64,000 nt of DNA, from assembly GCA_041584475.1 (NCBI GenBank), contig JBFHDX010000007.1, positions 248 to 64,247 on the forward strand. The letters run 5' to 3'. This document shows, in pieces, positions 18,343 through 44,998 of the stretch. Below the pieces are notes generated by a model. That model saw nothing but the letters and a program-made list of their open reading frames with translations, was not told the origin of the DNA and did not search any database. Within the stretch, counting starts at the first letter, position 1. Each line of letters opens with the position of its first letter. Origin of the DNA: Alphaproteobacteria bacterium. Lineage in GTDB: Bacteria; Pseudomonadota; Alphaproteobacteria; UBA8366; JADFVY01. The translations under genes and the position numbers were made by a program.

Positions 18343-19940
18343 AGCATGATCCGATTAGTTCGCACCGGCCCGCTTCCCCCGTCGATCATCAGGGCGGCGA
18401 CGGCGGCGGCTGAGACCGCCAGCGCGGCGGAAATCGCCATGGCGACGCGGAACCCGGTAACGAAGGCGCCGTCGATCGCCGCCTCGAGGGCGGTTCGCGT
18501 GGCGACGTCGAGCCCGGGCGGCGCCGCGGCCCCGGCCAGCCGGATCCGCTCGCCCGCAAGCTCCTGGCGTGCCTGGGCCGGCAGATCCAACGTCGCGATC
18601 GCGCCGTCGAGCGCATTGTTGAAGGCGGCCAGCACGAAGACTCCGATCAGCGCGACCGCCAGCAGTCCCGCGACCCTGGACACCGCGTTGTTGATGCCGG
18701 ACGCGATGCCCGCTCGTTTGTCGTCGACGGCGCTCATGACGACCGTCGTCAGCGGCGCCACCGTTATCGCCATGCCGAGGCCGAGCACGACGATGCCCGG
18801 CATGAACGTCCGCCAGTAGCCGCCGCCGATCCCCGGGAGCGCCAGCAGAACGAAGCCGGCAGCGGCGACCAGCGGGCCGATGATCAGGGGCGGACGGCCG
18901 CCGAACCGGTCGACGAGACCGCCAGACCAGCGCGATAGCGCGAACATGATCGCCACGAAGGGGAGAAAGGCCGCCCCGGCCGCGGTCGCCGAGTAGCCCT
19001 GCACCTGGATCAGGTTGAACGGCAGGAAGAACAGGCCGCCGCCGAGCGCCGCGTAGAGCGGCAGCGTGATCAGGTTGGCGCCGGAAAAGGCGCGCGAACG
19101 GAACAGCCCGAGCGGCACCATCGGCGCCTCGCCGCGCGCCTCGACGAGAAGGAACGCCGCGGCGGCGAGAAGGCCGGCCGCCAGCGCCCCCGCCACCGGC
19201 CAGCTGGCGAGGCCGATGCGGCCGGACTCGACGAGCGCGTAGACGACGCCGCCGAGCGCGAGCGTGGCGAGGACCGCGCCGCCCCAGTCGAGCCGCTGCG
19301 GCTTGGCCGGGGTCGCGGTCTCCGGCACGCCGCGATAAAGGATGAACAGCGTCGCCGCCGCGACCGGCACGTTGAGCAGGAACACCCAGCGCCAGGACAG
19401 GTTGTCGACCAGCCAGCCGCCGAGCACGGGACCGAAGGCCATGGCGAGCGCCGTGAAGGCGGACCAGGTGCCGATCGCCCGGCCGCGCTGCCCGGCGGAG
19501 AAGTGGGCGCTGATCAGGGCGAGGCTGCCGGGCACCAGCAGCGCGCCGCCGATCCCCTGCACGGCACGCGCCAGGATCAGCTGCAGCATGTCCGGCGCGA
19601 GGCCGCACCAGAGCGAAGCGGCGGTGAACAAGACGATGCCCGAGGCGAAGATGCGGCGCTGGCCGAGGCGATCGCCCAGCATGCCGCCGACGAGCAGCAG
19701 CGCCGAAAGCAGCAGCGCGTAGGCCTCGACGACCCATTGCAGGCCGGCGACCGTCGCCTCCAGCTCCGCCTGCAGCACCGGCAGGGCGACGTTGACGATC
19801 GTGCCGTCGACGAACGCCATGCTCGAGCCGAGGATCGAGGCGGCGAGCACGCTGCGGCCGAGGCGACGCGAGCAGGGCGCCACGTCGGGTGCGCTGCGGA
19901 TCGCGGCGTCGTCGCAGGGCAGGCGTACCGATACCGTCAT
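18339..19940 (-). CDS. MFS transporter, DHA2 (EmrB/QacA, 14-TMS) drug-efflux type
   Basis: 533 aa with about 14 hydrophobic segments and the motif LGDRLGQRRIF. Its stop overlaps the DUF4375 stop in a shared CTAG (18339-18342). Confidence 0.85.
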   Translation of the reverse strand: MTVSVRLPCDDAAIRSAPDVAPCSRRLGRSVLAASILGSSMAFVDGTIVNVALPVLQAELEATVAGLQWVVEAYALLLSALLLVGGMLGDRLGQRRIFASGIVLFTAASLWCGLAPDMLQLILARAVQGIGGALLVPGSLALISAHFSAGQRGRAIGTWSAFTALAMAFGPVLGGWLVDNLSWRWVFLLNVPVAAATLFILYRGVPETATPAKPQRLDWGGAVLATLALGGVVYALVESGRIGLASWPVAGALAAGLLAAAAFLLVEARGEAPMVPLGLFRSRAFSGANLITLPLYAALGGGLFFLPFNLIQVQGYSATAAGAAFLPFVAIMFALSRWSGGLVDRFGGRPPLIIGPLVAAAGFVLLALPGIGGGYWRTFMPGIVVLGLGMAITVAPLTTVVMSAVDDKRAGIASGINNAVSRVAGLLAVALIGVFVLAAFNNALDGAIATLDLPAQARQELAGERIRLAGAAAPPGLDVATRTALEAAIDGAFVTGFRVAMAISAALAVSAAAVAALMIDGGSGPVRTNRIML

Positions 19941-19985
19941 CGCGGCTCACCCCGTCGGTTGCCCGCCACATCTAGGCCGCGGCGC

Positions 19986-20120
19986 AAGTATATCATCCAC
20001 TTACGTGGAATCGGCACCGGCCCGCTCCCGCACCCGGCCACCCAACGGCACCGCACGCTGCGGGTGGCCGGGTGGGGGACCGGGCCGGAGCGAAATAATC
20101 GGATAATGCCCTGGCGGGCG
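19986..20120 (+). repeat. dispersed intergenic repeat, copy B (longest copy, with complete internal hairpin)
   Basis: AAGTATATCATCCACTTACGTGGAATCGG is followed by a ~27-bp-arm hairpin (CCGGCCCGCTCCCGCACCCGGCCACCC / GGGTGGCCGGGTGGGGGACCGGGCCGG), then GAGCGAAATAATCGGATAATGCCCTGGCGGGCG. Confidence 0.8.
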
Positions 20121-20140
20121 CAACCGCGCGCAGCCGCCGG

Positions 20141-20176
20141 AAAAAAAGGCCTGCCGCGCGCGAGGCGCGGCAGGCC
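20141..20176 (-). terminator. rho-independent terminator downstream of the vWA lipoprotein gene
   Basis: On the minus strand, a GGCCTGCCGCGC / GCGCGGCAGGCC 12-bp stem is followed by T7. Confidence 0.75.
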
Positions 20177-20204
20177 GCCCGTGGACAGCGGGACGTAATC
20201 CGGT

Positions 20205-20861
20205 TCAGCCGGGCAGCAGCTCGTCGAGATTGTCGAGGTTGTTGATCACCTTCCACTCGCCGCCGCCCTCGATGACCCGCGCCTGCCAGTAGTCGAGACG
20301 GGTCATGTACTCGCGCGGGTCGACGTTGTCGCTGCGCAGCTTGGTGACGTTCAGCGCGACCACGTTGTAGTCCTCGAGCGCGAAGGTCAGGCCTTTGCGG
20401 ACGAAGCCCTTCTTGAGCTCTTCCTTGAGGTCGGAATAGATCACGATGGTCTTGGTCCGGACGCCCTTCTCGTCGAGGAACTCGGAGGCCTGCAGGATGC
20501 CGCCGGTGATGTCGGTGTACTGCGCCGGCTTCACCGAGCGCACGAAGGCGGCGATCTGATCCTGGAACACCCGCTTCTGCTGGTTGGCGACGCTCGGCCG
20601 GTCGTCCAGCGTGACCTTGGCGATGATGTCCTTCTCGCTGAAGCTGCCCGTGTCGATGCGGGCGACGGCGAAGGAATCGCCCGGGTCGAGCTTGGTCAGG
20701 ATGGCGCTGATGATCTGCTGCGCCTTCTTGAGCTCGGCGGTGTAGGTGCCCGAGGTGTCGAGCAGCATGTAGACGCCCTGCCCGGACCCCGTGTTCGAGT
20801 CGCAACCCGAGACCGGCAGCGTCAGCCCGATCGCGACCAAGATGGTTGCCAGCCGGTACAT
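20205..20861 (-). CDS. vWA-like (MIDAS-containing) lipoprotein
   Basis: 218 aa with a lipobox (LTLPVSGC). It has MIDAS-like residues: LLDTSGT (DxSxS/T), YTDITGG and VIYSDLKE. Confidence 0.7.
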   Translation of the reverse strand: MYRLATILVAIGLTLPVSGCDSNTGSGQGVYMLLDTSGTYTAELKKAQQIISAILTKLDPGDSFAVARIDTGSFSEKDIIAKVTLDDRPSVANQQKRVFQDQIAAFVRSVKPAQYTDITGGILQASEFLDEKGVRTKTIVIYSDLKEELKKGFVRKGLTFALEDYNVVALNVTKLRSDNVDPREYMTRLDYWQARVIEGGGEWKVINNLDNLDELLPG

Positions 20862-20862
20862 G

Positions 20863-22335
20863 TCAGGCGGCCTCCTTCCCGAATGAGGTCTGCGGCTCGC
20901 GCTTCTCCTTGGGCCGGCGGCCGGAGGCGTTCGCCGCGCCGCGGCGCAGCACCATCTCCACGCCCAGGGGGACGCAGGCGAGCACGTCGTAAACGTTGAC
21001 GAGCATCAGGCCGAGATGCCGGATGATCGTCCCGGCGACGCGCAGCAACGCGGCGAAGCCGCGCATGCCGGCGGCGATGCCGGTGCCGAAGACGTTGCGG
21101 CCGGTATGGACCAGCGTCTCCAGCGGGATCGCGACCACCGCCAGCACGTAGGGCAGGAAGAAGCCGAGTCCCATCTGCGCGGCCGTGGTGATCCAGTTGA
21201 ACCACTTGTTGGATGCCGCCGCCGCGGCCGCCGCGTCGCCGCGCAGGAAGGCGTTCGTCGCCTGCTCGTCCTGCACCAGGATCTCGCGCATCAGCGCCAG
21301 GCCGGCCTCGATGCAGGCGAACATGGTCAGCAGGAACAGGCAGAAATACGCCATGCGCACGCGCGTCGTGTCCTTCAGCGCGTGGATCACCGGGAACAGG
21401 TTGGTGATGCGCAGCGCCTCCATCAGGAACACGCCCATGAAGACTTCGAGCAGGATGATGACGAGCGCCGCGATCTCGGAGATGCGCAGGCCGCCGACGA
21501 TGACGTTGCCGCCGACCATCTCGGCCATCGGCCGCGCGATCAGGCGGAAGTTGATGCCGGCGCCGACGACGGCGATGCCGAGTACGAACGCCGAGACGAT
21601 GAAATAGGTGAAGGACGAGGTCGAGAGCTTGCGCTGCGCCTGGTCGGTCTTCTTCAGGATGCCCTCGTAGTCCGCCATGTGCTTGTCGATCAGCTTCGAC
21701 TTCTCGAGCAAGTTGCCGACGTCCTTGTCGACCTTGGTCAGCGTCGCGTCGAGCTTGCGGATGTCGGGTATCATCGACTTCAGGTGCTTGTGCCGCTCCT
21801 GCGTGCCCTTGCGGTATTCGTCGGTCGCCGCGGCGTGCGCCTTGACCAGCGAGGAATGGATGACCTCGAGGATCTTCGAGACCATCGGGTCGCCCTTCGA
21901 ATTGATGTTGGCGACGGCCTTGACCGCCTCGACCCAGCCCGGCGGCGAGGGCGGCACCTCGGTACTCTTCTGGTGGTCTTCCTCGACCTTGGTGATGTAT
22001 TCGGTGACCCGCCGGGACAGCGTCGGTACGTCGGCCAGATCGCGCTTGACCGCGCCCTCGATGCGCTCGAACTCGCGCTCGATGTCGCGCTCCTTCTGCT
22101 CGCGCCCGTGCGACAGCAGCACTTCGCGGTTGCGCAGCGCGAAGTTCGCCTCCGCGCGCAGCACCGACCGCGCGGCGACGCGCAGGCCGCGGTACAGGGC
22201 GTACGTCAGGGTCAGGATTGCCTGATGCGCCGGCTTCCGTGCCAGATAGAGAACGATCGAGAGCAGGACGAACCAGATCACTCCCGACATCGCGACATTG
22301 TTCGGCACGAGCATGAAAGCCTTGTCGAACGTCAT
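20863..22335 (-). CDS. hypothetical polytopic membrane protein with a ~200-aa coiled-coil/helical insert
   Basis: 490 aa. It has an N-terminal TM (VIWFVLLSIVLYLA), then a charged helical region (EQKERDIEREFERIEGAVKRD...KLDATLTKVDKDVGNLLEKSKLIDKHMADYEGILKK), then at least 5 TM segments. Its stop lies 1 nt before the ATG of the downstream lipoprotein gene. I recognise no family. Confidence 0.7.
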   Translation of the reverse strand: MTFDKAFMLVPNNVAMSGVIWFVLLSIVLYLARKPAHQAILTLTYALYRGLRVAARSVLRAEANFALRNREVLLSHGREQKERDIEREFERIEGAVKRDLADVPTLSRRVTEYITKVEEDHQKSTEVPPSPPGWVEAVKAVANINSKGDPMVSKILEVIHSSLVKAHAAATDEYRKGTQERHKHLKSMIPDIRKLDATLTKVDKDVGNLLEKSKLIDKHMADYEGILKKTDQAQRKLSTSSFTYFIVSAFVLGIAVVGAGINFRLIARPMAEMVGGNVIVGGLRISEIAALVIILLEVFMGVFLMEALRITNLFPVIHALKDTTRVRMAYFCLFLLTMFACIEAGLALMREILVQDEQATNAFLRGDAAAAAAASNKWFNWITTAAQMGLGFFLPYVLAVVAIPLETLVHTGRNVFGTGIAAGMRGFAALLRVAGTIIRHLGLMLVNVYDVLACVPLGVEMVLRRGAANASGRRPKEKREPQTSFGKEAA

Positions 22336-22414
22336 GGAATCTCCTTTCCCGGCGCACCCGCGCGGTGGCGCCTGATACCGAAAATGCTAGCCGACATCTA
22401 TGCCGCAAAAGCCA

Positions 22415-22429
22415 TTAACACCAAGTTAA
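22415..22429. promoter_or_regulatory. perfect CtrA-type box TTAA-N7-TTAA
   Basis: TTAAcaccaagTTAA lies in the divergent intergenic region, about 87 bp upstream of the ATG at 22335 (minus-strand gene). Confidence 0.45.
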
Positions 22430-22509
22430 GAGCTGGGCATTTATTTGGCATTTTAGCTTTGCGTATTTGCCGGGACTGGCGCATTTACATTGGCGACACC
22501 ACGATCATT

Positions 22510-22545
22510 GTGTCGCGCGAACGAATCGTGTCGCGCGAACGAATC
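22510..22545 (+). repeat. perfect 18-bp tandem duplication (GTGTCGCGCGAACGAATC x2) upstream of purE
   Basis: Read directly from the sequence. A partial third GTGTCGC occurs at 22552, and another GCGCGAACGAA occurs at 22598-22610. Confidence 0.9.
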
Positions 22546-22672
22546 CCGCCGGTGTCGCCACTTCGCCGCAACCAGGATCGGGGCAACCCGTCCTCCTTGC
22601 GCGAACGAAGGCCCTCCCTATAATGCGCCGCTCTTGATACATCCGCATTGCGACAAAAAAAGGGCAATCGTC

Positions 22673-23164
22673 ATGGCCCAAGCGCCGGTCGTCGGCATCA
22701 TCATGGGCAGCCAGTCGGACTGGTCGACCATGCGCCATGCCGCGGAAACCCTGGAGAATCTGGGCATTCCCTGCGAAACCCGGATCGTCTCGGCGCATCG
22801 CACGCCGAGACGCATGGTCGATTATGCGGAAGACGCCCGCGCCCGCGGCCTGAAGGTCATCATCGCCGGCGCCGGCGGCGCCGCGCACCTGCCGGGCATG
22901 GTGGCGTCGCTGACGTCGCTGCCGGTGTTCGGCGTGCCGGTCGAGAGCGCCTCGCTGCGCGGCATGGACAGCCTGCTGTCGATCGTGCAGATGCCGCCGG
23001 GCGTGCCGGTCGGCACGCTCGCCATCGGCCGCGCCGGCGCGATCAACGCGGCGCTGCTGGCGGCCGCGGTCGTGGCGCTGCAGGACGAAGCGGTCGCCGA
23101 GGCGCTCGACGCGTGGCGGCAGCGGCAGACCGACACGGTTGCCCGCGAGCCGAAGGATGACTGA
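22673..23164 (+). CDS. purE: 5-(carboxyamino)imidazole ribonucleotide mutase
   Basis: This is ORF 22490..23164. The real start is the ATG at 22673 ([17 protein letters not shown]...SAHRTP...[10 protein letters not shown]). Confidence 0.95.
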
Positions 23165-26676: not shown

Positions 26677-26691
26677 TTAACACGTCCTTAA
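26677..26691. promoter_or_regulatory. perfect CtrA-type box TTAA-N7-TTAA
   Basis: TTAAcacgtccTTAA lies in the 449-bp AT-richer gap, about 205 bp upstream of the EB_dh-like/MCP gene pair. Confidence 0.45.
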
Positions 26692-26896: not shown

Positions 26897-27766
26897 ATGT
26901 GCAATCATGAATTGAATAAGACGCTTGCCTTGGCGGTTTTGACCGCCGGATTTGCCGCAGGATCCGTCCTGCCGGCCACGGCGCAGACGGCAATCCAGGC
27001 CACGGCGCTGCAGAAGCCGATCCAGGTCGACGGCGATCCCGCAGACTGGACCGGCGTGCCCGGCCATCGCATTGCCCTGCGGGGCGCCGGCGGGGTCGAC
27101 TCCGTCGAGATGAAGTTCGGTATTCGCGGCGACACGATTTACGTGCTCGCGATCTGGGATGACGCGACCGAGAGCCGGCTGCACAAGCCGTATGCGTGGA
27201 ATGAGGAGCTGCACACCTATCGCCGTACCGATCAGCTGGAGGACCGGTTCGCCATCAACTTCCTGATGTCGGGCGAGTTTTCCAACAGCAAGATGTCCGG
27301 TGCCGAGTTCACCGCCGACGTCTGGCACTGGAAGGCCTCGCGTTCCGATCCGGCCGGCATCGCGCACGACAAGATGTGGCGGGTGTCGAGGACCGAGTTC
27401 GAGGGCTCGAAGAAATGGACCGGCGAGAACGGCCAGACCATTTACCTCGCGCGTCCGAGCGACGAGGGCGACCGGCTGTATCGCCCGGTGAAGTACGTCA
27501 CCAGGCAGGGCGATCTGATGCCGCGTTACGAGGTCAACCTGAACCCGCGCGGCAGCGTTGCCGATATCCGGGCGAAGGGCGTCTGGCGGAACGGCCGCTG
27601 GTATCTGGAGCTCTCGCGCAAGCTCGATACGGGCAACGCGGACGATGCGGTAATCCCGGCGTCCGGCCGGATTCCGTTCGCCGTTGCGGCGTTCAACGAT
27701 GTCGACAGCGAGAAGCACAGCGTGTCCGAGGCGTTGGTCCTCCATACGGGCAATTACGGAAACTGA
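26897..27766 (+). CDS. secreted EB_dh/DOMON-like (ethylbenzene-dehydrogenase gamma-type, putative haem-binding) domain protein
   Basis: 289 aa with a signal peptide (LALAVLTAGFAAGSVLPATAQ). The motifs IQVDGDPADWTGVP and ADVWHWKASRSDPAGIAHDKMW fit my recollection of PF09459. Confidence 0.6.
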   Translation: MCNHELNKTLALAVLTAGFAAGSVLPATAQTAIQATALQKPIQVDGDPADWTGVPGHRIALRGAGGVDSVEMKFGIRGDTIYVLAIWDDATESRLHKPYAWNEELHTYRRTDQLEDRFAINFLMSGEFSNSKMSGAEFTADVWHWKASRSDPAGIAHDKMWRVSRTEFEGSKKWTGENGQTIYLARPSDEGDRLYRPVKYVTRQGDLMPRYEVNLNPRGSVADIRAKGVWRNGRWYLELSRKLDTGNADDAVIPASGRIPFAVAAFNDVDSEKHSVSEALVLHTGNYGN

Positions 27767-27838
27767 CGCGATAGCGCTTGCCCCGGCGGCCGACTTTTTT
27801 CTGGCGGCCGTCGGGGCGACATCGCGGGGGATCTCGAA

Positions 27839-29983
27839 ATGACAACAAGAACGAGCAAGACCGTGGAGACGACACTGCAGGACAGCACACGGCGCGCGCG
27901 CCTCAGCTGGTCGCTGATGCTGTTCGCCGGGTTGCTGATCGGCGTCCTGCTTGTCGTCGGCGTCACCATCGGAGGCGGCCTCAATTCGATCCACAAGAGG
28001 GCAGAAGATACCACGCGAGCCACGATTCCCGAGTCGGTTGAACAAAACCGTCATGCCTTGATCGCCGAGCAAATCGCCCACTACGCCGAACAGGTGCGGT
28101 TCGGCCGCGAGGCGACGTCCCGCGAGAGAGCGTTCAAATCGGTCTCCGCCTTGAGCGATGAGCTGGCTGCCGGCGTGAACCCCATGCTTCGGCCCGACGT
28201 GGAGCGGGCGGCGGAACTGATCCGCGAGGCCTTCGAGGCGGCCCAGACCGCACATTCGGCGAACAGCCGAATCGCCAGCAAGCTCGTTGATGCGGAGAAT
28301 CTGATCGGTGAAATCGACGACGGTCTGTCGGCGATCATGGACGACAGCGCCTATCGTGCGCTGGAGTTGGTCGAGGAGACCGACGAACTGCTGGACGCCG
28401 CCCAGTCCGGAAGCGCGATTTCAAGCGTCCGGAGGGTGTTCGGCGGCGTTCGGGAAACAATTGGCTTCAACACGGCAAGCCAGCAGCTGCTCGTCGCGCT
28501 GCGCGCCTTGCGCAACATCCTCCTCCAGGTGCGCACACTCGACAGCCGAACGGCGCTGGATGCCGCCGAAAGCAGGTTTGGGGCGCTCTACAAACGCCTT
28601 GATGTCCTTGTCGAGAACCTGCCCCGGGCCGGCACGGCCGCCAGCGATTTCGAGTATCTGCCGGAACAGGTGGAGCAGTTTGCGAGTTTCAATGACATCT
28701 TTGAGATGCGCAGAACGGCGATCGAGTCGCACACTGCGGCCAACGTGCAGGTCGAGGCGGCCTTGGAGATCCTTGCGAATCTGCGGGAAAATCTCTCGGC
28801 CGACGCCGCGGACAAGGCGATTTCCAGCGTCGGCGAGATTGCCGCGGACGCGGAGCGGATCATGACCATCAGCATCGCGCTGATGTCGGTTCTCGGGCTC
28901 GTCACGGTCCTCGCGGTTGTCCGCGTGCGCCAGGAGGCGCTGCTCCCATTGTCCGTCGCGAGCCGCGCGCTCGACGGGCTCAGGCGCGGCGATTTCGACG
29001 TCGACATTCCGCGATCCCGTTTCGAGGAGTTTGCCTCGATACGCGAATCGCTGCACAGCTTCCGCAATGCGCTCGCCGATCGCGAGCGGCTGGAGAAGGA
29101 GCAGGCGGCCCGCAAGCAGGAGGCAGAGGAGGAGAAGCGCCGCATCATGCTCGAGCTCGCCAACGGGCTCGAGGGCAGCGTCCAGGCGGTGGCGTCGGGC
29201 GTTTCCGCCGCCGCCGTCCAGATGGAGACCGCGGCGTCGCGGATGTCGACGACCGCGGACCAGACGCGCAGCCAGGCGGCCACGGCCGCATCCGCCTCGA
29301 CCGAGGCGAGCGCCAGCGTCGAGGGCGTGGCGACGGCGGCCGAGGAGCTGTCGAACTCGATCGAGGAGATCCTGCGTCAGGTCGACCGCTCGACGCAGAT
29401 CGCCAACCGCGCGGCGGGCGAGGCCGAGCGCACCAACAGTGCGGTCGACGGGCTGGTCGACGCGGCGCGCGAGATCGGCGAGGTCGTCGAGCTGATCTCC
29501 GAGATCGCCGGCAAGACCAACCTGCTGGCACTGAACGCGACCATCGAGGCGGCGCGCGCCGGCGAGGCGGGCAAGGGCTTCGCCGTCGTCGCCAACGAGG
29601 TCAAGACGCTCGCCAGCCAGACGGCCAAGGCGACCGATCAGATCGGCAAGCGCATCGAGGCGATGCGCGGCGTCACCGGCGAGGCGGCCGACGCGATCCG
29701 CAAGATCGCCGACACCATCGTCGAGATGAACGAGATCTCGACGACGGTCGCGTCCGCCATGGAGGAGCAGGGCGCAGCGACCAAGGAGATCGCCCGCAAC
29801 GCGATGGCGGTGACGGGCAGCGCGAAATCCTCGAACGAGAGCATCGGGCTTGTCGCGAGCGCCGCCGACGATGCCGGCGCGGCGGCCGGGCAGGTGCTGG
29901 GCGCGGCCGGCGACCTGAGCAAGCAGTCGCGCGAGCTCAAGGAGGCGGTCGAGGGCTTCCTCTCCCGCATCCGCGCCGCCTGA
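27839..29983 (+). CDS. methyl-accepting chemotaxis protein with a ~310-aa helical periplasmic domain
   Basis: 714 aa with two TM segments, a HAMP domain (LDGLRRGDFDVDI) and the conserved signalling hairpin ([38 protein letters not shown]). Confidence 0.9.
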   Translation: MTTRTSKTVETTLQDSTRRARLSWSLMLFAGLLIGVLLVVGVTIGGGLNSIHKRAEDTTRATIPESVEQNRHALIAEQIAHYAEQVRFGREATSRERAFKSVSALSDELAAGVNPMLRPDVERAAELIREAFEAAQTAHSANSRIASKLVDAENLIGEIDDGLSAIMDDSAYRALELVEETDELLDAAQSGSAISSVRRVFGGVRETIGFNTASQQLLVALRALRNILLQVRTLDSRTALDAAESRFGALYKRLDVLVENLPRAGTAASDFEYLPEQVEQFASFNDIFEMRRTAIESHTAANVQVEAALEILANLRENLSADAADKAISSVGEIAADAERIMTISIALMSVLGLVTVLAVVRVRQEALLPLSVASRALDGLRRGDFDVDIPRSRFEEFASIRESLHSFRNALADRERLEKEQAARKQEAEEEKRRIMLELANGLEGSVQAVASGVSAAAVQMETAASRMSTTADQTRSQAATAASASTEASASVEGVATAAEELSNSIEEILRQVDRSTQIANRAAGEAERTNSAVDGLVDAAREIGEVVELISEIAGKTNLLALNATIEAARAGEAGKGFAVVANEVKTLASQTAKATDQIGKRIEAMRGVTGEAADAIRKIADTIVEMNEISTTVASAMEEQGAATKEIARNAMAVTGSAKSSNESIGLVASAADDAGAAAGQVLGAAGDLSKQSRELKEAVEGFLSRIRAA

Positions 29984-42689: not shown

Positions 42690-44840
42690 TCAGCCGGCGC
42701 GGACGCCCGACAGGAAGCGCTCCACTTCCTTGCCCAGGACATCGGCCTGCTCGCTGAGCCCGGTTGCCGCCCGCAGCACCTCTTCGGCCGTGGCGCCGGT
42801 CTCTCCCGCGGCCCGGGCGACGTCCTCGATATTCTGCGAGACGCTGTGCGTGCCCTTCGCGGCCTCCTGGACGCCGCGCGCGATTTCCTTGGTTTGCGCG
42901 CTCTGCTCCTCGACCGACGAGGCGATCGTCGCGGCGATTTCGCTGATCTCGTGAATGATGTCGAGCACCCCGGCAATCGCCTCTGCGGTGCCGCGCGTCT
43001 CGGTCTGGATGGCGGTGATCTGGGCGGCGATCTCGTCGGTCGCCTTTGCCGTCTGGTTGGCGAGGTTCTTCACCTCCTGGGCGACCACCGCGAAGCCCCG
43101 CCCGGCCTCGCCCGCCCGCGAGGCCTCGATCGTCGCGTTCAGGGCAAGAAGGTTCGTCTGCCCGGCGATCTCGCTGATGACGTCGACGATTTCGCCGATG
43201 CGCTGAGCCGAGCCGGTAAGCCCCTTGACCGCCTGTTCCGTGTCGCGGGCCCGTTCCACGGCCTTTCCGGCGATCTTCGAGGATTGCACGGCCTGGCGCC
43301 CGATCTCGCCGATCGAAGCGTCGAGCTCCTCGGTCGCGGTCGCCGCCGTCTCGACGTTCGCGCTGGCCTCCTCGGAGGCCGCCGAGACGTTGGCTGACTG
43401 GCGGTTGCTCCGCTCCGCGGCGGACGACATCTGCTGCGCGGCGTCGCGCATGCGCTGCGCCGATGCCAGGACGTCGCGGGCAAGCGCCTGGACCTGCGAT
43501 TCGAACCGGTCGGCAAGGTCGAGGACGGCGCGGCGTTTCTCTTCCTCGGTGCGCTGCTTGCTCAGCTCCTGCTCCGCGTGCATGCGCTCCTTCTCGATCG
43601 CGTTGTCCTTGAACACGGCGAGCGCGCGCGCGATGGCGCCGATTTCGTCTACCCGCGACAGCGATGGCACTTCGATCGACACGTCGCCCTCGGCCAGCCG
43701 GCCCATCGCCCTGGTCATGCGGCTCAAGGGCTGGGTCACGCGGCGCTGCACGACCCATATCGCCGCGAATATCCCGAGCAGGCCGAGCACCAGCAGCTCC
43801 AGATCGACGCGGATGTTGCGCGAGCCGCGGGCAACCGCCCGCTCCGCAAGTTCGGACGACACGCTGCTTGCCAGCTCCGACAGTTTCCGGACCGCCTCGG
43901 CCGCGACAACCGACTGCGAGCGCCAGGCCTCCGCCGAGACGGGATAGGCAGTGCCGTCGATACCGGCTGCCAGAACGGCCTCGCGCAGCTCCGAGAACTC
44001 GCCGAAATACTGGCGTTCCGCCTCGCTGATGGCGCGGACGACGGATTGATCGGCGTCCGGATGCAGGGCGTAGGCGCGCAGCATCGTCCAGCCTTCCATG
44101 ATGCGGCCGCGGCATTCGCCGATGCGCTGCAGCTGCCTCGGCGTAAGGGCGCGGCCGCCGGAGATCGCGTTGGCGATCTCGGTGCGCTCGCGCGCCGTGA
44201 ATTCCTGGATGCTCCACGTCGCCTGCTTCAGCATCGTGTTGGCCTGGATCCAGGCGAAGGGATGCGCCATGTCGAGGCGGCGGTCGGCGCGAAACGTGAT
44301 CGCCGCCCGGTAGTCGCCCAGCGCCGCAAGCAGCGCGCTGACGGCGGTCGACCAGTCGTCGAGCAGGCCACCGCCGGGCAAGGCGCTGCCGGTGCGGAAG
44401 GCCTCATCGACGCGGCGCCGCACGTCCTCGACATTGGCATGTCGGCTGCGCACGGCATCCAGAAGGGCCGTCCGGCTGCCGACGACATAGTCGGTTTTGC
44501 GCCCCTGCTCCAGGATTCGCCGCACGCCGTCGCGCGCGGCCTCTCGATGACGCTCGACGGAGCGCAGCAGATCCCGCCGCATCGCTCCGGAGCGGGCCAG
44601 CGTCGCAAGGCCGATTTCGATCGCTTCGCGCTCACCGGCCAACGCGCTGGATGTTTCGAGCACGAGGTCGGCGGCGCGATTGCTCCAGGCGGCGGCGACC
44701 GCGTTCTCGCGATTCTTGTAAGCTTCGACGGCGAGACCGATCGTGTAGTAGAGAATGATCACGCTCAGCACGAAGATCAGAACGAACAGCAAATGCCGTA
44801 TCGTTGCGGCCTTTCGCAGAGTCGTCCAGATCGTCGTCAT
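42690..44840 (-). CDS. methyl-accepting chemotaxis protein
   Basis: 716 aa with an N-terminal TM, a ~300-aa helical sensor region, a second TM, HAMP ([13 protein letters not shown]) and the signalling hairpin ([38 protein letters not shown]). Confidence 0.9.
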
Positions 44841-44983: not shown

Positions 44984-44998
44984 TTAAGACGCACTTAA
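44984..44998. promoter_or_regulatory. perfect CtrA-type box TTAA-N7-TTAA
   Basis: TTAAgacgcacTTAA lies about 150 bp upstream of the MCP start at 44840 (minus strand). Confidence 0.45.

Follow-up and report, generated by a model that had tools for sequence, protein, structure and literature searches.

A conserved two-gene operon of an undescribed membrane protein and a von Willebrand factor A lipoprotein in Alpha- and Gammaproteobacteria, with a possible link to motility

Two adjacent genes of an alphaproteobacterial genome, located in a 64,000-nt stretch of contig JBFHDX010000007.1 (assembly GCA_041584475.1, positions 248 to 64,247; hereafter the window), encode a polytopic membrane protein, here designated MEMB, and a lipoprotein with a von Willebrand factor A (vWA) domain, here designated LIPO. 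The analysis revealed that the pair is a conserved two-gene operon, co-translated and with its own terminator, in which the genes are always adjacent and mostly overlapping. Very strong purifying selection acts on both proteins across Alpha- and Gammaproteobacteria. The pair constitutes an unannotated two-protein module outside any described vWA system: MoxR/Bat, TerY, NorQD and CglB each fail a defining feature. Two independent lines, a CtrA-type promoter box in Alphaproteobacteria and synteny with flagellar genes in Gammaproteobacteria, tie the operon to motility regulation.

A conserved two-gene operon in Alpha- and Gammaproteobacteria

With each GTDB species represented by one genome, a MEMB relative was detected in at least 559 alpha- and gammaproteobacterial genomes, and the best 80 of them, all metagenome-assembled genomes (MAGs), were taken as reference loci (26 alphaproteobacterial and 54 gammaproteobacterial). 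With five additional metagenome loci, 85 loci were surveyed for neighbouring genes. The LIPO alignment and the overlap statistics cover 76 loci, and MEMB conservation was determined over 80 species. Among the best 80, the alphaproteobacterial carriers belong to Rhodospirillales, Kiloniellales, Geminicoccaceae and Inquilinaceae, and the gammaproteobacterial ones to Thiohalomonadales, Chromatiales, Thiotrichales, Ectothiorhodospiraceae, Thioalkalispiraceae and Granulosicoccaceae. An exhaustive search with hidden Markov models gave sequences that fall into 945 clusters at 50% identity and into thousands at 90%. Two loci probably come from mis-binned contigs: L005 (CAYFYY010000023.1) is labelled Flavobacteriales, yet it shares its gene order and 74% identity with the Rhodospirillales-type loci L001-L004, and L048 (JALSGY010000027.1) is labelled Rhodobacteraceae, yet it shows the cheB-fliA context of gammaproteobacterial loci and clusters with those of Chromatiales.

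The gene for LIPO was found directly downstream of that for MEMB in 78 of the 80 reference loci, the remaining two being cut by contig ends, and hence in every locus that could be assessed (78/78). The same adjacency was observed in the five additional metagenome loci, one of them with a frameshift. In L083 (9464-10082), LIPO is split over two reading frames next to an intact MEMB, which reflects either an assembly-error frameshift or a pseudogene. Of 76 loci, 52 have a MEMB stop that overlaps the LIPO start; the overlap is 4 nt long in 31 of these and 1 nt in 21. The neighbour survey revealed no third gene universally linked to the pair, and a literature search gave no description of it. A vWA cluster up-regulated by RpoE6 in Azospirillum was considered and discarded, as it is a different, six-gene system.

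The organization of the operon in the window is as follows:

20863-22335, reverse strand: MEMB gene, 490 aa (list of open reading frames); integral membrane protein of an undescribed family
20205-20861, reverse strand: LIPO gene, 218 aa (list of open reading frames); signal peptide, lipobox and a single divergent vWA domain
20862-20877, reverse strand: coupling junction; AAGGAGG (20871-20877) within the 3' end of MEMB, then TGA, c, ATG
22341-22345, reverse strand: Shine-Dalgarno sequence AGGAG, 5 nt ahead of the MEMB ATG
20141-20176, reverse strand: intrinsic terminator of the operon; 12-bp stem (20148-20176) with 11 G-C pairs, followed by T7 (20141-20147)

Reading of the sequence places the MEMB TGA (20865-20863) and the LIPO ATG (20861-20859) 1 nt apart, with a single c between them. 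A previous description of this region, made from the DNA alone (hereafter the original prediction), had proposed both reading frames with this 1-nt gap and the terminator at 20141-20176, and all of them were present at those positions. Its expectation that the two genes would be conserved together also held in the loci described above.

Features of the lipoprotein and its membrane partner

The motifs that characterize LIPO, most of them already pointed out in the original prediction, map to the following positions:

20802-20813, reverse strand: lipobox V-S-G-C, residues 17-20 (LPVSGC, Cys20), with Asp as the +2 residue
20745-20759, reverse strand: MIDAS (metal-ion-dependent adhesion site) motif 1, D35-T-S37-G-T39 (residues 35-39), in the beta1-alpha1 loop after strand 28-34; invariant
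20499-20516, reverse strand: MIDAS motif 2, T116-D-I-T-G-G (residues 116-121), at the alpha3 N-terminal position; T116 invariant
20421-20435, reverse strand: MIDAS motif 3, S143-D144-L-K-E (residues 143-147), at the end of strand 136-142 (beta4 C-terminus); D144 invariant

A hydrophobic leader or signal peptide followed by the equivalent Cys is present in 76 of 76 LIPO orthologues, and the five MIDAS residues (D35, S37, T39, T116 and D144) are 100% invariant across the same set. Motif 1 aligns with the DISGS of the ITIH1 vWA domain, with T39 replacing the last Ser of DxSxS, and T116 aligns with the Thr of 'ATNLNGG' in ITIH1. The AlphaFold2 (AF2) model of LIPO (predicted local distance difference test score, pLDDT, 81.6; predicted TM-score, pTM, 0.81) shows alternating strands and helices in a Rossmann-like alpha/beta arrangement, and in it the three motifs occupy the canonical beta1-alpha1, alpha3 N-terminal and beta4 C-terminal positions. 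Comparison of this model with the PDB by Foldseek gave 68 matches at E<=1e-3, the top 50 of which were all vWA domains, with E-values of about 1e-5 and TM-scores of about 0.5. The matches include TFIIH p44, BatB (3ibs), ITIH1, NorD, integrin I domains, alpha2delta and CLCA1; the highest sequence identities (18-21%) are those of alpha2delta-1, Cachd1 and the CLCA1 vWA domain. The LIPO of the window had no Pfam match at E<=1, and PF13519 (VWA_2) was matched by 25 of 40 close relatives (best 1.1e-7) and PF00092 by three.

Between classes, LIPO sequences retain 55-84% identity, and 55 positions are near-invariant. The protein consists of little more than its 190-residue vWA domain, attached through a tether of about 9 residues; it has neither a stalk nor any feature for export to the surface. 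The residue after the lipid-bearing Cys is mostly S or G (47 of the 63 scored), and S, G or A in most orthologues. Altogether, these sequence and model data define LIPO as a predicted exported, lipid-anchored, minimal and divergent vWA domain with a complete MIDAS, for which metal binding is predicted.

MEMB belongs to an unannotated family of integral membrane proteins. Family-averaged hydropathy revealed strong hydrophobic segments at residues 15-32 (transmembrane segment 1, TM1), 242-262, 288-308, 328-349 and 384-405, and a weak one at 441-463. The N-terminal TM of the original prediction is thus present, and its "at least five" further TMs were reduced to four strong segments and one weak segment. 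The number of Lys plus Arg residues (K+R), as family average, was 0.1 in the N-terminal tail, 34 in residues 33-241, 2.3 in 263-287, 4.3 in 309-327, 2.6 in 350-383, 3.9 in 406-440 and 5.3 in the C-terminal tail. Because of these hydropathy profiles and K+R counts, interpreted by the positive-inside rule, we infer an N-out, C-in topology in which the stalk of about 210 residues formed by long helices (33-241) would be cytoplasmic. Only two short near-invariant loops (263-287 and 350-383) and the short N-terminal tail would then face the periplasm. The alternative topology with a periplasmic stalk was disfavoured, as it would place outside the loops with 4.3 and 3.9 K+R.

The AF2 model of MEMB (pLDDT 77.6) consists entirely of helices, of which those at 33-99, 150-227, 231-273 and 402-470 are very long. 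The TM bundle comprises residues 242-405, with four TMs, and is followed by a basic C-terminus that is cytoplasmic in the predicted topology. Over 80 species, 110 positions of MEMB are at least 97% identical. They include three invariant intramembrane glutamates in the predicted TM3 and TM4 (E297, E306 and E343), as well as E351, D322, R325 and E406. In periplasmic loop 1 (263-287), the invariant residues are N262, F263, L265-A267, P269, E272, M273 and G275. The loop V127-P-P-x-P-P-x-W134 sits between the long helices, with V127, P128, P129, P131, P132 and W134 at least 97% identical. It forms part of an invariant motif at residues 124-142 (S-x-x-V-P-P-x-P-P-G-W-x-x-A-V-x-A-V-A; window about 21910-21966), located between the two longest predicted cytoplasmic helices, which looks like a docking site for a cytoplasmic partner.

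The original prediction could not match MEMB to any family, and database searches led to the same result. Comparison with Pfam, NCBIfam and PADLOC gave sub-threshold noise only, and Pfam detected no domains in ten longer relatives in which informative fusions were sought. A PDB sequence-profile search with the full-length alignment returned coiled-coil noise only (e.g., Sso1, IFT57), and no match at E<=10 was obtained when only the TM domain was used. Foldseek of the MEMB model against the PDB gave nothing significant. Its best match, TTYH2 (E 0.11, TM-score 0.17), was rejected for being non-significant and for its different domain order.

Promoters and gene neighbourhoods

Analysis of the region upstream of MEMB revealed the following elements:

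22415-22429, no strand assigned: CtrA-type box TTAA-N7-TTAA, TTAACACCAAGTTAA, 80-94 nt upstream of the MEMB ATG
22384-22389, reverse strand: putative -10 hexamer TAGCAT, read from the sequence
22437-22486, reverse strand: AT-rich tract with three AAATGC and one AAATAC, spaced 18, 15 and 11 bp, just upstream of the CtrA-type box

The perfect CtrA box noted in the original prediction is therefore present. Reading of the sequence places its start 40 nt upstream of the -10-like TAGCAT, so that it abuts the -35 region; a stringent sigma-70 scan of the window region called no promoter, TAGCAT included. The window (68% GC) holds 18 TTAA sequences, six of which form three N7 pairs (offset 11), and no TTAA pair at any other offset from 5 to 30 was found in it. 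Since three perfect TTAA-N7-TTAA boxes in 64 kb compare with 0.005-0.01 expected, the box cannot be attributed to chance. The other two perfect boxes precede chemoreceptor operons. One (44984-44998) lies 144 nt upstream of a gene for a methyl-accepting chemotaxis protein (MCP; 42690-44840, reverse strand), and the other (26677-26691) lies 206 nt upstream of an operon (26897-29983, forward strand) in which a gene for an EB_dh-like exported protein is followed by an MCP gene. These two MCPs are the only chemoreceptor genes of the window.

The box is conserved among alphaproteobacterial relatives. A perfect TTAA-N7-TTAAC is present at positions -100 to -103 in all seven closest orthologous loci (L001-L007, 67-74% identity); the N7 spacers vary among them, and apart from being AT-rich their flanks have nothing in common with those in the window. 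L006 additionally has a TTAACCAT half-site. A TTAAC was found at -135 to -75 in 24 of 26 alphaproteobacterial vs none of 54 gammaproteobacterial loci. In the neighbouring bins of the alphaproteobacterial loci it appeared in 0/26 on the downstream side (-75 to -15) and in 7/26 on the upstream side (-195 to -135). More distant alphaproteobacterial clades keep the TTAAC half-site with a degenerate second half, and the independent loci L082 and L083 agree with the TTAAC pattern.

The full CtrA site has been described as TTAA-N7-TTAAC and the half-site as TTAACCAT, and the CtrA pathway governs flagellar motility in Ruegeria (PMC3692519). An ancestral role in motility has been attributed to the CtrA pathway in Magnetospirillum (Greene et al. 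2012, as cited in PMC3692519). Outside Caulobacter, the CtrA regulon is primarily devoted to motility and chemotaxis, and the operon shares with the CtrA-regulated motility and chemotaxis genes of Alphaproteobacteria the presence of TTAA-N7-TTAA(C) or TTAAC in the promoter. These sequence data suggest that in Alphaproteobacteria the operon belongs to the CtrA regulon, with CtrA binding as a prediction; none of the literature retrieved lists the MEMB-LIPO pair as a CtrA target. As to the possible cell-cycle control put forward in the original prediction, the link to CtrA stands, and it is better worded as membership in the CtrA regulon (motility/chemotaxis).

A different element occupies the position of the CtrA box in Gammaproteobacteria. 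The sequence TGTGA-N6-TTGGCGGTTT was found in 28 of 54 gammaproteobacterial vs 6 of 26 alphaproteobacterial loci, at about -110 to -50 from the MEMB start (L012-L080; e.g., L018 5922-5975). A TAnnAT follows 38 nt after TGTGA in the gammaproteobacterial orthologues, at the same distance as in the box-to-TAGCAT geometry of the window. The element is often part of an AACCG-N5-CGGTT inverted repeat. It does not fit a sigma-28 promoter, and recognition by sigma-54 was rejected, as the GG-to-GC spacing, read from the sequences, is two bases short.

With regard to gene neighbourhoods, fliA (NF005413, about 280 bits vs a cutoff of 201) was found directly upstream of the pair and on the same strand in 23 gammaproteobacterial loci, preceded in turn by either MCP-cheR-cheD-cheB or fliG-H-I-J-K. 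In two loci flgM is the divergent neighbour, and in two more fleQ lies upstream, together with flgM or fliG. In all, a flagellar or chemotaxis linkage was observed in 27 of 54 gammaproteobacterial loci; in five of the 54, the flanks were too short for an assessment. A single large clade, with MEMB identities down to 56%, comprises the linked loci, and che-type and fli-type contexts are interleaved within it; the flagellar linkage has therefore survived rearrangement.

Other gene contexts were also recorded. In the alphaproteobacterial locus L082 (4387-17283), the pair lies inside a cytochrome c oxidase cluster, in the order COX2/COX1, CtaB, CtaG, COX3, DUF983, pair, SURF1, CtaA. A same-strand DUF1249 gene and a SPOR-domain gene follow LIPO in 18-19 gammaproteobacterial loci (L012-L079); in their place, a Thiotrichales-like clade has a convergent gene for a coiled-coil SPOR protein of 500 aa.

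In the window, the gene 3' of the operon, on the same strand, encodes a transporter of the major facilitator superfamily, and the divergent upstream genes are purE (22673-23164) and purK. No flagellar structural gene is present within the 64 kb. The repeats in the AT-rich tract read as GCATTT on the forward strand (22437-42, 22448-53 and 22481-86), with a GTATTT at 22463-68. The original prediction had noted these repeats, and they do exist, but the hexamer is not enriched over the window (20 observed vs 17.9 expected) and the repeats were not found in the closest orthologous promoters (L001-L007). The purE-proximal half of the divergent intergenic region contains an 18-nt tandem duplication, ATTGTGTCGCGCGAACGA / ATCGTGTCGCGCGAACGA, at 22507-22542, and a third copy of GCGCGAACGAA at 22599-22609. 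A 30-nt imperfect inverted repeat (22491-22520 / 22531-22560) flanks the tandem duplication. The duplication and the inverted repeat may be a regulatory element of purE; they have no Rfam match, and an Rfam scan of 19900-22750 detected no credible RNA.

Possible role and relation to known systems

Because of the CtrA box in Alphaproteobacteria and the flagellar synteny in Gammaproteobacteria, an accessory role in the motility and chemotaxis programme is the most likely function for the pair. Our tentative proposal, to which we assign somewhat less than an even chance, is that the two proteins form a new envelope complex with such a role, through a mechanism deduced indirectly. In this mechanism, the alphaproteobacterial operon would be transcribed from the CtrA-box promoter, as the chemoreceptor operons of this genome would be. 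The vWA domain of LIPO, anchored by its lipid, would dock on the periplasmic loops of MEMB, and an invariant acidic residue of MEMB (E272 or E351) might complete the coordination of the MIDAS metal, as occurs in integrin-ligand and alpha2delta-channel contacts. Through this contact, LIPO could control the Glu-lined bundle, whose activity would be ion-conducting or conformational, and the cytoplasmic stalk, tipped by the VPPxPPGW loop, would couple that activity to a cytoplasmic partner. A more specific version, which we regard as rather unlikely, is that of a flagellar or chemotaxis accessory consisting of a Glu-lined ion-conducting or signal-transmitting inner-membrane complex, with its periplasmic face clamped by the MIDAS lipoprotein and its stalk docking on a motor, export-gate or chemosensory component.

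The closest working analogy for this arrangement is found in the eukaryotic alpha2delta-CaV and CLCA1-TMEM16A systems, in which a lipid-anchored or secreted vWA protein engages the extracellular loops of a polytopic partner via its MIDAS. The combination of a lipid-anchored or secreted vWA domain with a polytopic protein is common to them and to the pair. On the other hand, the evidence of homology goes no further than the vWA fold, MEMB bears no relation to CaV or TMEM16, and the contact between LIPO and MEMB is a proposal. For the membrane protein itself, a lead comes from MotA/PomA, ExbB and TolQ, in which an N-out TM helix is combined with a long helical domain that lies in the cytoplasm and runs on into the TMs, and with conserved charged residues inside the membrane. 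The general architecture of MEMB resembles theirs, and MotA is also found in a flagellar gene context. However, the number and order of TMs differ, and the partner here is a lipoprotein rather than a single-TM MotB/ExbD/TolR protein with a critical Asp. MEMB showed no similarity to these proteins in PDB sequence and fold libraries, where to our knowledge they are represented.

Several observations weigh against the proposed complex and its role in motility and chemotaxis. Flagellar or chemotaxis genes were present within 6-10 kb in none of the 26 alphaproteobacterial loci, whose neighbours are instead purEK, the cox cluster, hydrolases and others. In Gammaproteobacteria, the flagellum-linked loci are essentially one clade, so that the synteny may derive from a single ancestral event, and several other clades lack flagellar neighbours; across the non-linked loci, the neighbours are as unrelated as purEK, the cox cluster, type II secretion system-like genes, GGDEF and DsbC. 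No convincing sigma-28 promoter (TAAA-N15-GCCGATAA) was found before the gammaproteobacterial operons: GCCGATAA within one mismatch occurred in 10 of 54 loci on the sense vs 5 of 54 on the antisense strand, a weak and non-specific signal. CtrA binding is deduced from sequence, and MEMB topology from hydropathy and charge only. Finally, the S or G at +2 of most orthologues scored (Asp in the window) predicts, by the E. coli rule, an outer-membrane location for LIPO, too far from the short loops of MEMB for the two to touch.

The non-flagellar gene contexts fit the main rival explanation, a motility-independent module for ion or metal homeostasis in which MEMB would be a cation channel or transporter, with a lining formed by the invariant glutamates, and LIPO its metal-sensing or gating subunit in the periplasm. 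On this explanation, the CtrA box would reflect a broad CtrA regulon and the fliA linkage the inherited synteny of one clade. The housekeeping character of the alphaproteobacterial contexts (purEK, cox cluster) and the confinement of flagellar neighbours to one gammaproteobacterial clade are in its favour, as are the three invariant glutamates within the membrane and the MIDAS, a metal-binding motif. However, the only other perfect CtrA boxes of the window precede chemoreceptor operons, the gammaproteobacterial linkage outlasts rearrangements and involves four flagellar partners (fliA, flgM, fleQ and fliG), and no transporter family signature was found for MEMB in Pfam, NCBIfam or the PDB profile search. 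We consider a homeostasis module doubtful on balance. The pair might alternatively be a swim-to-stick device, co-expressed with flagella, in which LIPO is an outer-membrane or surface MIDAS adhesin like CglB and MEMB its inner-membrane partner for regulation or delivery. The +2 residues of most orthologues favour sorting of LIPO to the outer membrane by the E. coli rule, and co-regulation by CtrA or with flagella would suit an attachment programme. Bacterial precedents exist: the lipoprotein CglB is described as a vWA adhesin at the outer membrane of Myxococcus (PMC9946355), where it is part of the gliding machinery, a complex of at least 17 proteins (PMC11761067), and Bd0875 as a MIDAS adhesin (PMC11003981). 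CglB and LIPO are alike in being bacterial vWA/MIDAS lipoproteins with a link, proposed in the case of LIPO, to a motility apparatus. In contrast to CglB, which is surface-exposed in the gliding complex, LIPO is minimal and highly conserved, with a single inner-membrane partner and in flagellated lineages. Adhesins are usually variable, unlike LIPO, which moreover lacks any stalk or surface-export feature beyond its short tether. The strict translational coupling of LIPO with a polytopic protein of the inner membrane is rather what a stoichiometric complex would require. The adhesion role suggested in the original prediction found nothing specific in its support, and we hold the swim-to-stick device to be improbable.

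It is far less probable still that the pair belongs to a known vWA system, be it a Bat/MoxR-vWA chaperone, a TerY stress module or an anti-phage conflict system. What the pair has in common with them is the fold, as illustrated by BatB (3ibs) and NorD among the best Foldseek matches. The MoxR-vWA/BatA-D systems (Bacteroides aerotolerance) and NorQ-NorD also resemble it in having a MIDAS vWA protein, often membrane-associated, encoded in small operons. Their defining component is, however, a MoxR/CbbQ ATPase of the AAA+ type (plus a DUF58 protein for Bat), and their vWA proteins are TM-anchored or cytoplasmic. Here there is no ATPase, the vWA domain is carried by a lipoprotein, and its polytopic partner belongs to an orphan family. 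No AAA+ MoxR/CbbQ or DUF58 gene was adjacent to the pair in the window or recurrent among the 85 loci. TerY/TerY-P modules combine a cytoplasmic vWA protein with kinase/phosphatase or ter genes; LIPO carries an export signal, unlike the cytoplasmic TerY, NorD and ViaA, and no kinase/phosphatase, ter or effector genes were found near the pair in the window or in the surveyed loci. Neither protein matched the PADLOC anti-phage models at E<=1. In contrast to defence islands, the pair has been conserved stably and vertically, in housekeeping contexts. These data agree with the original prediction, which had set the pair apart from BatA-D, TerY and MoxR-vWA. Overall, its reading of the pair was supported, as none of the outcomes that it had named as refuting (a characterised family for MEMB, genes conserved separately, MIDAS residues out of structural register) was observed.

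MEMB and LIPO thus represent a large and strongly conserved family without functional annotation, whose membrane component has no family or fold assignment. The operon also offers a case of regulatory rewiring, in which the same gene pair and promoter geometry are associated with a CtrA box in Alphaproteobacteria vs TGTGA-N6-TTGGCGGTTT at the equivalent position in Gammaproteobacteria. If the link to motility is true, the pair would add a component to the flagellar or chemotaxis systems of Alpha- and Gammaproteobacteria from the sea and from sediments, among which are many sulfur oxidisers represented by MAGs only. If the proposed contact is also true, a MIDAS subunit would be in control of a polytopic membrane protein in bacteria as well, as a counterpart of the alpha2delta-channel arrangement.

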